Positions 36,501 through 37,158 of a stretch of DNA of 64,000 nt are shown in pieces. The position numbers were made by a program, and so were the translations under genes. Numbering within the stretch: the stretch's first letter is position 1; the number at the start of each line of letters is the position of its first letter. The stretch is taken from sequence record PP400777; one strand, written 5' to 3'. Origin of the DNA: Escherichia phage JM10. The notes under the pieces are model-generated. The model searched no databases. It saw nothing but the letters and a program-made list of their open reading frames with translations, and was not told the origin of the DNA.

Positions 36501-36545
36501 GTTGCTTTTCCTAAGTTAATTAACTTATCTATTTATTATTATGCC

Positions 36546-36572
36546 AAAAAGCCCCAACCTTTCGGAAGGGGC
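36546..36572 (-). terminator. rho-independent terminator downstream of the tRNA/stable-RNA cluster
   Basis: Same hairpin as 21930-21951, followed by TTTTT on the minus strand. Confidence 0.6.
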
Positions 36573-36614
36573 TATATACCTTGTCGGGGTTCCACCTGCT
36601 AAGGCAAGTGTTTG

Positions 36615-36707
36615 TACGAAACGCCGGGATTCGAACCCGGTTATTAAGCAGTTGACGCTACTCAATATTTTTAAAAGGCCATATCTCGACCATATCCGAA
36701 CGTTCCG
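36615..36707 (-). ncRNA. tRNA-like element / candidate stable RNA
   Basis: Canonical T-arm CCGGG-TTCGAAT-CCCGG and 7-bp acceptor pairing (CGGAACG/CGTTTCG), but 93 nt long and no clean D or anticodon arm could be folded by eye. Confidence 0.3.
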
Positions 36708-36880
36708 TCAAAAACGCTACTCGGCTTACGGCAAAGATATTTCCTCGAATCGATAATTCGGTGCGCCGTTTCTGCTGTGATGTAAGGGGATATTAACAAA
36801 TCATAAAGATTTATTAAGACCAGTCCTTACTCAGGGAACATCAGTCCGACGACTTACCGGTAGCGACCCGGCTTCTTATT

Positions 36881-36957
36881 TGGTCGAGGCAGAAGGATTC
36901 TAACCTTCAACCTACGGATTAGAAATCCGTTGCTCTATACAATTGAGCTATGCCTCG
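36881..36957 (-). tRNA. tRNA-Arg (anticodon UCU)
   Basis: Cloverleaf read by eye: acceptor CGAGGCA/TGCCTCG, D stem GCTC/GAGC, anticodon loop TTTCTAA, T arm GAAGG-TTAGAAT-CCTTC, CCA encoded. Confidence 0.8.
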
Positions 36958-36963
36958 AATATA

Positions 36964-37037
36964 TGACCCAGACCAGATTCGAACTGGTAACCTTTCCCTT
37001 ATGAGGGGACTGCTGCTAACCATTGAGCTACAGGGCC
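36964..37037 (-). tRNA. tRNA-Ile2/Met-like (anticodon CAU)
   Basis: Acceptor GGCCCTG/CTGGGTC, anticodon loop CTCATAA, T arm ACCAG-TTCGAAT-CTGGT; the D stem is imperfect as read. Confidence 0.6.
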
Positions 37038-37158
37038 TAAATAACTTTCTATTATGAAAGGCACTTTAGAGTACCTTTGGTAATAGAGGGTATGAATTAA
37101 TAATAACACATAATTCTTAAAGCAAATCAATCATTTTAACAGTTGGCAAAACGATTTC

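Follow-up and report, generated by a model that had tools for sequence, protein, structure and literature searches.

Orthologues of the T4 stable RNAs rnaD and rnaC in the tRNA operon of an RB69-like Escherichia phage, and a covariation-supported tRNA-like fold for rnaC

What kind of product is encoded by the roughly 300 structured nucleotides that follow the last tRNA gene of Escherichia phage JM10? The window analysed here, a stretch of 64,000 nucleotides from sequence record PP400777, belongs to an RB69-like T-even phage of the genus Mosigvirus, as indicated by a megablast search with the region. ARAGORN and Rfam agree on exactly two tRNA genes in this window, both on the minus strand. The tRNA with anticodon CAU (36964-37037; Rfam tRNA, 54 bits) has no encoded CCA and is the orthologue of T4 tRNA-Ile, with a single mismatch in the alignment, whereas the tRNA-Arg (UCU) gene (36881-36957; 72.6 bits) does encode its CCA and, when aligned with the tRNA-Arg of T4 and of phage TG1, represents a sequence lineage separate from that of T4 tRNA-Arg. 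A previous sequence-only reading of this DNA had counted just these two cloverleaf tRNAs, one Arg-UCU and one of the CAU type, against eight in T4; both programs bear out the count of two, and the homologous region of T4 does hold eight. Since the same two tRNAs are annotated in close RB69-like relatives, such a pair is the ordinary state of this genus, i.e. the small tRNA set is real but normal for RB69-like phages. PHROG searches with the neighbouring ORFs, and with an ORF inserted in other Mosigviruses, returned only families of unknown function.

Our data show that the stretch of about 300 nucleotides located 3' of tRNA-Arg consists of orthologues of the T4 genes rnaD and rnaC, which together form the distal part of one tRNA operon, and that rnaC has a conserved tRNA-like fold; for this reading as a whole we estimate a probability of about 90%. 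The 305 nucleotides in question (36576-36880, minus strand) contain no credible ORF, and the folds of both rnaC (36615-36753; z = -4.55) and rnaD (36759-36879; z = -2.79) are better than those of shuffled sequence, which confirms the earlier description of the region as structured and non-coding. In the T4 reference record (NC_000866), misc_RNA genes for rnaD and then rnaC come directly after tRNA-Arg. The orthologue of rnaC (species 1 RNA) at 36615-36753 on the minus strand, which folds into a tRNA-like four-way junction, was assigned by alignment with T4 as well as by a covariance model, and lies on the same strand as, and 3' of, tRNA-Ile, tRNA-Arg and rnaD. It is identical to T4 rnaC (NC_000866 70908-71046) at 137 of 139 positions (98.6%) without gaps; the T4 gene occupies the same position, after rnaD and before a trailer hairpin and terminator, and has the same predicted fold. 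One of the two substitutions is located in the long arm and the other in arm 2, where an A-U pair of T4 is G.U here. A covariance model (R1) trained on 18 homologues, all from other genera and with T4-type and RB69-type sequences left out, produced a single match in the window (36614-36753, minus strand; 141 bits, E = 6.6e-40), which covers model positions 1-141 of 141, and it matched neither of the two genuine tRNAs. The base-for-base alignment with T4 and this full-length match settle the choice in favour of stable RNAs like those encoded by T4 rnaC and rnaD, one of the options that the sequence-only reading had listed. As these stable RNAs of T4 have been known since the 1970s, the finding as such is already known. 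Scans of this region against Rfam, at the gathering thresholds and at E <= 10, found no family matching rnaC or rnaD, with only weak matches at chance level (tRNA-Sec at 16.6 bits, isrK, SpF51 and snoRNAs).

The rnaD (species 2 RNA) orthologue at 36760-36879 (minus strand), assigned by alignment with T4, starts one base after the CCA of tRNA-Arg, exactly as T4 rnaD does (NC_000866 71053-71171). With 105 of 120 positions identical (87.5%), the two differ mainly in a middle hairpin, whereas the 5' 55 nucleotides and the 3' 30 nucleotides are nearly identical; the cores AAGUCGUCGGACUGAUGUUCCCUG and AUCACAGCAGAAACGGCGCACC are those of T4, except for one extra G in T4 (GAUGGUUCC versus GAUGUUCC), and the 3' end reads ...CACCA in T4 and ...CACCG here. 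The RNA is made up of a 5' hairpin (5 bp, 7-nt loop), the variable middle hairpin and a closing helix GUCGUCG / CGGCG(C)AC, which is the same in T4, and it has neither a T arm nor any other tRNA-like module. Compensatory changes in the 5' hairpin, the closing helix and the inner helices, as evaluated with RNAalifold, occur at 7 of 25 pairs with nine homologues and at 10 of 15 pairs with 14 homologues, which is weaker support than that obtained for rnaC. Homologues of rnaD follow tRNA-Asn in Karamvirus, Moonvirus and Jiaodavirus phages and, in the two rV5-like phages W70 and A73 (Vequintavirinae), a tRNA with anticodon CAU.

The transcription unit as a whole reads, on the minus strand, candidate promoter, tRNA-Ile(CAU), tRNA-Arg(UCU), rnaD, rnaC, trailer hairpin and terminator. 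The candidate promoter, a putative MotA-dependent middle promoter read by eye at 37100-37127, consists of the MotA box TTTGCTTTA at 37118-37126 and the -10 element TATTAT at 37100-37105, and the arrangement TTTGCTTTA-N12-TATTAT (37100-37126) is conserved in an alignment with the stretch just upstream of the T4 tRNA cluster. In T4, a middle promoter upstream of the tRNA cluster gives rise to a single transcript, from which all tRNAs as well as the species I and II RNAs are derived, and transcription of this operon stops after the species I gene (PMC2330249). Here, rnaC is followed by a 39-nt trailer, 36 nucleotides of which are identical to T4, with the hairpin CACUUGC-CUUA-GCAGGUG (36593-36610, minus strand) between rnaC and the terminator; this hairpin is kept also in phages that have no rnaC. 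The intrinsic terminator of the operon (36545-36573, minus strand) was recovered by folding: its GC stem encloses an inner stem capped by GAAA, and a run of UUUUU comes next. A simple consensus scan had missed it because of two U.U mismatches, and the corresponding element is labelled a rho-independent terminator in the record of phage SA79RD.

How is rnaC itself built? Homologues were gathered by BLAST walking, pattern scans and HMM searches, which resulted in 39 distinct sequences from the genera Tequatrovirus, Mosigvirus, Gaprivervirus, Karamvirus, Moonvirus, Kanagawavirus, Gelderlandvirus, Tegunavirus, Mosugukvirus and Marfavirus as well as from unclassified Klebsiella, Citrobacter and Edwardsiella phages. 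All of the collected homologues are located inside tRNA clusters, and the cluster context was the same or similar in all of those inspected. When 25 of these, which represent ten genera or more, were aligned with MAFFT, the RNAalifold consensus was a four-way junction of acceptor stem, long arm, arm 2 and T arm, which is arranged in the order acceptor stem, a 3-bp AGG/CCU helix carrying the long arm, an A-rich linker, arm 2, one unpaired base and T arm. Across the 38 pairs of this consensus, 93.5% of cells can pair, versus 38-46% when partners are slid, and compensatory changes are found at 25 of the 38 pairs, with none of 500 shuffles reaching the observed values. The same architecture was the individual minimum-energy fold in ten of 12 divergent homologues. 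A tRNA-like fold of rnaC that includes a loop-loop contact is thus well supported by covariation, as a model of the structure.

Taken stem by stem, the acceptor stem comprises 7 bp formed by nt 2-8 with nt 131-137, i.e. by the 5' strand CGAUUCG (36746-36752, minus strand) and the 3' strand CGUUUCG (36617-36623), and is stacked on the T arm. It is 74% paired, versus 13-55% in slid controls. Position 4:135 shows a compensatory change from A-U to G-C (7 versus 17 sequences), and the conserved tandem U.U is replaced by U-A and C-G in Yersinia phage TG1 and by U-A twice in Pectobacterium phage PM2. The T arm, CCGGG-UUCGAAU-CCCGG (36624-36640, minus strand), directly abuts the 3' acceptor strand; its 5-bp stem (nt 114-118 with nt 126-130) carries the loop UUCGAAU and is 99.2% paired. 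The long arm (36679-36742, minus strand) is seated on the AGG/CCU helix (36743-36745 with 36676-36678) and ends in the apical loop UUGACG (36706-36711). Pairing reaches 96.5% in its helix 3 and 99.3% in its helix 4, with compensatory change at 11 of 14 pairs, and its apical hairpin has such support at five of six pairs; in the Melville, PEi20 and Klebsiella types, the long arm is of unrelated sequence, yet folds in the same way. Arm 2 (36642-36667, minus strand) is a 9-bp stem with compensatory change at eight of its nine pairs, topped by the loop CGUCAA (36652-36657). With regard to a possible counterpart of the D-loop GG that docks on the T loop in tRNAs, a GG located before the 3' strand of the AGG/CCU helix is near-invariant; in Kanagawavirus it is CG, combined with a T loop UGCAUGC in place of UUCGAAU, which represents a single event.

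The apical loop of the long arm and the loop of arm 2 are complementary to each other (UUGACG at 36706-36711 with CGUCAA at 36652-36657), and form a predicted 6-bp kissing contact, which is 99.3% paired in the 25 sequences. Support comes from two independent double changes that keep this complementarity, UUGGCG/CGCCAA in Klebsiella phages and UUGAUG/CAUCAA in Yersinia phage TG1, and one-sided changes in the kissing pairs do not occur among the 25 sequences. No description of this loop-loop contact was found in the literature searched, and the term 'RNAC' in PMC10468400 is only part of the name of a grant.

This architecture also clarifies what the sequence-only reading had noticed as a 93-nt tRNA-like element (36615-36707) with a T arm and acceptor pairing, in which an anticodon arm could not be folded. 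The element corresponds to the 3' two-thirds of rnaC. Its canonical T arm at 36624-36640 (minus strand) stands, whereas its acceptor partner and its 93-nt extent do not: pairing of 36701-36707 with 36617-36623 is possible in the sequence, but does not covary, and the actual partner is 36746-36752. Since this covarying partner is the true 5' end of rnaC, the element is 139-141 nt long rather than 93, and the anticodon arm seemed to be missing because the architecture differs from a cloverleaf. The segment 36701-36707 itself is part of the long arm, namely of its apical hairpin.

The alternative acceptor helix (nt 46-53 with nt 130-137) nevertheless deserves consideration, because its pairing is possible in 84% of cells (n = 25), compared with 25-48% in slid controls. 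One could imagine that rnaC switches between two conformers, with either its true 5' end or nt 46-53 paired to the 3' strand, and that this switch controls processing or activity, which would be a functional refinement rather than a structural rival of the tRNA-like fold. The complementarity of nt 46-53 to the 3' strand is present in most homologues, and there is a resemblance between GCGUUUU, which forms the 5' side of the apical hairpin, and the acceptor strand at the 3' end, GCGUUUCG. However, this resemblance may mean that the complementarity is just a by-product of the likeness between the hairpin partner and the 3' strand, and the alternative helix shows no covariation, as 484-497 of 500 shuffles reach the observed values. 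Furthermore, the complementarity is lost in phage TG1 (where, by eye, the helix has three breaks) as well as in the Melville and Klebsiella types, and the tRNA-like form both has the lowest energy and prevails in the ensemble. We therefore regard such a switch as very improbable.

If the segment of 93-95 nt (36615-36707) were a class II tRNA, degenerate or unusual in kind and equipped with a long variable arm, it would be closed by pairing of 36701-36707 with 36617-36623. This reading would draw on the same 84% of pairable cells and on the weak Rfam tRNA-Sec match over 36616-36708 (16.6 bits, E = 2.6). It would also explain why ARAGORN calls the homologous 95 nt in Enterobacter phage id4496 a tRNA-Met(CAU) and why the GenBank record of KKP_3262 labels its rnaC homologue a 96-nt tRNA-Phe(GAA). 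Yet, the conflict between these two anticodons is itself evidence against a degenerate tRNA, and the tRNA-Sec match falls far short of its gathering score of 47, so membership in that family was rejected. ARAGORN and Rfam are silent at this place both in the window and in T4; with no tRNA model reaching its threshold and no standard tRNA found within 36576-36880, the check that the sequence-only reading had itself proposed goes against a tRNA. As for the substitutions, the closing helix of such a tRNA does no better than shuffled sequences and is unable to form at three of its eight pairs in 6 to 15 of the 25 sequences (by eye, these include the Melville type), its internal segment is part of a hairpin with strong compensatory support, and the competing stem with the true 5' end does covary. 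A degenerate tRNA, which had been among the options of the sequence-only reading, thus has hardly any probability left.

Could the region be nothing but a structured 3' trailer of the tRNA operon, which provides processing and termination signals or protects against 3' exonucleases? Its location between the last tRNA and the terminator, and the presence of another conserved hairpin in the trailer, would fit such a role. However, T4 rnaC and rnaD accumulate as discrete stable RNAs, as detected by Northern blot and RNA-seq (PMC9697503), and in other genera rnaC is found in the middle of the cluster, between tRNA-Trp and tRNA-Gly. The 98.6% identity to T4 rnaC is tighter than a trailer would require, while the flanking tRNA-Arg is of another lineage. 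Moreover, the two RNAs occur independently of each other. In many genera rnaC has no adjacent rnaD, and a clean deletion of rnaC has left rnaD on its own in Dhakavirus AnYang and Mosigvirus ESCO47. We conclude that rnaC and rnaD are independent modules, and, as each is absent from some related phages, that both are accessory; the chance that they are mere trailer is as slight as that of a degenerate tRNA. That the region encodes small proteins can practically be dismissed, even though mechanical ORFs of 42-71 amino acids overlap it on both strands and dozens of related records carry 'hypothetical protein' features over rnaC/rnaD homologues, because the annotated ORFs vary in frame, strand and extent between records, substitutions are paired compensatory changes in helices with no codon-position pattern, the long arm is exchanged for unrelated sequence with the fold being kept, and the T4 products are known to be RNAs.

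Orthology with T4 rnaC and rnaD is the reading we follow. The annotation of these genes is sparse: unlike in T4, rnaC is left unannotated in most RB69-like genomes, and in most T-even genomes neither rnaC nor rnaD is annotated, their place often being taken by spurious protein features or by false calls of a 95-nt tRNA-Met or tRNA-Phe. Pattern scans of viral contigs retrieved mostly known T4-like contigs, and one further match there (L042) was rejected as a chance hit in a GC-rich coding region with no tRNAs nearby. In genome contigs, the pattern matched 24 times, but none of these matches was recognised by the rnaC HMM, so that there is no evidence for bacterial copies of rnaC; a metagenome scan produced only near-identical rnaC variants.

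It is instructive to compare rnaC with known RNAs that share parts of its architecture. Like a tRNA (RF00005), it has a 7-bp acceptor stem formed by both ends, an adjacent 5-bp T stem with the loop UUCGAAU, a discriminator-like base followed by NCA or CCA, a four-way junction and a location within tRNA clusters. Unlike a tRNA, it has no anticodon arm with 5 bp and a 7-nt loop, since arm 2 carries a 6-nt loop on a 9-bp stem; an arm of about 64 nt takes the position of the D arm, there is a linker of 8-10 nt and a 'variable region' of just 1 nt, the two loops that kiss are not the T loop, the acceptor stem contains a tandem U.U, and ARAGORN and Rfam do not respond to it. In tmRNA, an acceptor stem and T arm provide for RNase P and CCA-type processing, while the remaining body has a different fold. 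With rnaC it shares this principle of an acceptor/T-arm module on a non-tRNA body; however, rnaC has no tag reading frame, is much smaller and has A-U or G-C at position 3:70 rather than G3.U70, the identity pair for alanine. Membership of rnaC among tmRNAs was rejected, with neither an ARAGORN tmRNA call nor an Rfam match. YrlA (RF02553) is a modular RNA with a tRNA-like element on a protein-binding stem and is sometimes encoded by phages. In rnaC, by contrast, the termini form an acceptor stem and not a Ro-binding stem, and YrlA membership was also rejected, as the single match in the region (17.8 bits versus a gathering score of 69) covers the genuine tRNAs (36932-36992) and not rnaC.

By extrapolation from T4, a stable rnaC of about 140 nt and a stable rnaD of about 120 nt may be expected in this phage too. 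The species 1 RNA has been reported to be about 140 nt long, a size that corresponds to nt 2-138 plus CCA. All 25 aligned sequences have a U directly behind the acceptor stem, and this U is followed by ACA here and in T4, by UCA in TG1 and by CCA in Klebsiella and Pectobacterium phages, which fits a discriminator-plus-CCA register. The mature ends of rnaC are approximate, as the gene annotated in T4 includes one extra base ahead of the first acceptor pair and another behind this discriminator-like U. T4 tRNAs that do not encode their CCA need repair. The tRNA domain is what RNase P recognises, and a missing CCA has an effect on the yield of T4 tRNAs (PMC11143913).

Arguing from this T4 tRNA biology, the acceptor/T-arm minihelix of rnaC could serve as a handle for processing and stability. 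Guided by this minihelix, host RNase P would release the 5' end of rnaC; once the 5-6-nt spacer had been trimmed as well, the 3' end of rnaD would thereby be defined too. At the other side, 3' exonucleases would trim the trailer and the CCA-adding enzyme would finish the end of rnaC, which should then read ...CGUUUCGU plus non-templated CCA. The outcome would be an abundant, nuclease-resistant rnaC of about 140 nt.

As it has no anticodon loop, rnaC is unable to decode. With low confidence, we propose that it may mimic a tRNA without decoding and engage a protein by which the acceptor/T-arm ends of tRNAs are recognised, and, on a similarly tentative note, that rnaD may be a structured RNA in its own right, expressed by way of the tRNA operon. 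A regulatory RNA derived from a tRNA, the remaining option of the sequence-only reading, may apply as well. Going one step further, rnaC could be a decoy or inhibitor of a host factor that acts on tRNA 3' ends or on the tRNA elbow, with its body kept rigid by the kissing contact, and rnaD, which some rV5-like phages have in common with T4-like ones, could be a second mobile anti-host RNA expressed from tRNA operons; in this specific form, we consider the idea unlikely. Potential targets would be tRNA-processing enzymes as well as immunity toxins by which the acceptor ends of tRNAs are modified or cleaved. When a T4-like phage was adapted to the semi-permissive host ECOR34, a convergent SNP was reported in rnaD (PMC12685909). 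In the literature on T4, the function of the species 1 and 2 RNAs has been stated to be unknown from 2010 (PMC3014915) via 2022 (PMC9697503) to 2025 (PMC12685909), and the decoy reading, if true, would provide a first function for RNAs that have been orphaned since the 1970s.

Overall, rnaC is present in at least ten genera of T4-like phages, and both RNAs are widespread but dispensable, a pattern like that of accessory host-interaction factors. As by-products of this analysis, gaps in annotation have become apparent, a structure of rnaC has been obtained and the wide occurrence of both RNAs has been seen, which makes the question of function easier to attack experimentally.

The gene for species 2 RNA, rnaD, is not confined to T4-like phages. 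Homologues also occur in Escherichia phage W70 (Vequintavirinae; comparison sequence L030:1497-1598), directly after a CAU tRNA, and in phage A73, likewise immediately 3' of a CAU tRNA. In these rV5-like phages the gene has a 5' hairpin of the T4 type, conserved cores and a middle part of the Karamvirus type. Since both phages fall outside the T4-like family, this distribution suggests that rnaD has spread horizontally.

By sequence, the tRNA-Arg(UCU) of the window (36881-36957) is not orthologous to the tRNA-Arg of T4 (L001:3174-3248), and in alignments the tRNA-Arg of Yersinia phage TG1 is nearer to it than that of T4. That the boundary between tRNA-Arg and rnaD (ACCA-A-AU...) is kept although the tRNA-Arg sequence differs implies a cassette-like replacement of the tRNA at this boundary. 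In most RB69-like phages these two genes are separated by a 356-bp insertion that lies exactly at their junction (L002:1993-2348 in one comparison sequence, equivalent to the 36880/36881 junction of the window). It contains a 114-aa ORF, i.e. RB69ORF150c (phrog_3355, a PHROG family without assigned function). The window and phage JM17 do not have this insertion and thus show the T4-like arrangement of tRNA-Arg and rnaD.

The gene for species 1 RNA, rnaC, has been cleanly deleted in Dhakavirus AnYang (L031:496-700) and Mosigvirus ESCO47 (L032:499-700), which retain rnaD, the trailer hairpin and the terminator; judged by this gene content, rnaC is evidently dispensable for these two phages. The 7-bp trailer hairpin, located between rnaC and the terminator (window 36593-36610), is conserved with T4 and is present even where phages have lost rnaC; it is possibly a processing site. 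Where rnaC is of the Kanagawavirus type (L020:326-466, L021 and L045), the T loop reads UGCAUGC instead of UUCGAAU, and CG replaces the near-invariant GG that precedes the CCU strand. The two differences may together mark a correlated change in a tertiary contact resembling that between D-loop and T-loop, but they amount to a single event.

In GenBank records of T-even phages, rnaC and rnaD are seldom annotated (among the matches listed, only T4 isolates, RB27, RB3, Kha5h and ATK47 show them), and 'hypothetical protein' CDS features, from one to five of them and in differing frames, often lie over the region. Within rnaC, the internal segment ACGGAACG (window 36701-36708) is complementary to the 3' strand of the acceptor stem (36616-36623). 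Most homologues share this complementarity (84% of cells), and it shows no covariation. This complementarity could reflect an alternative conformer or the relic of a duplication, and it is the reason why tRNA finders are fooled at rnaC. ARAGORN calls a tRNA-Met(CAU) on the 3' 95 nt of the homologue in an Enterobacter phage (L004:1254-1348; PQ824230), and the corresponding 3' part of that in another Enterobacter phage (L029:276-371; OK210076) is annotated as tRNA-Phe(GAA). These assignments are mutually inconsistent and almost certainly false, and such calls on rnaC homologues make phage tRNA counts too high.
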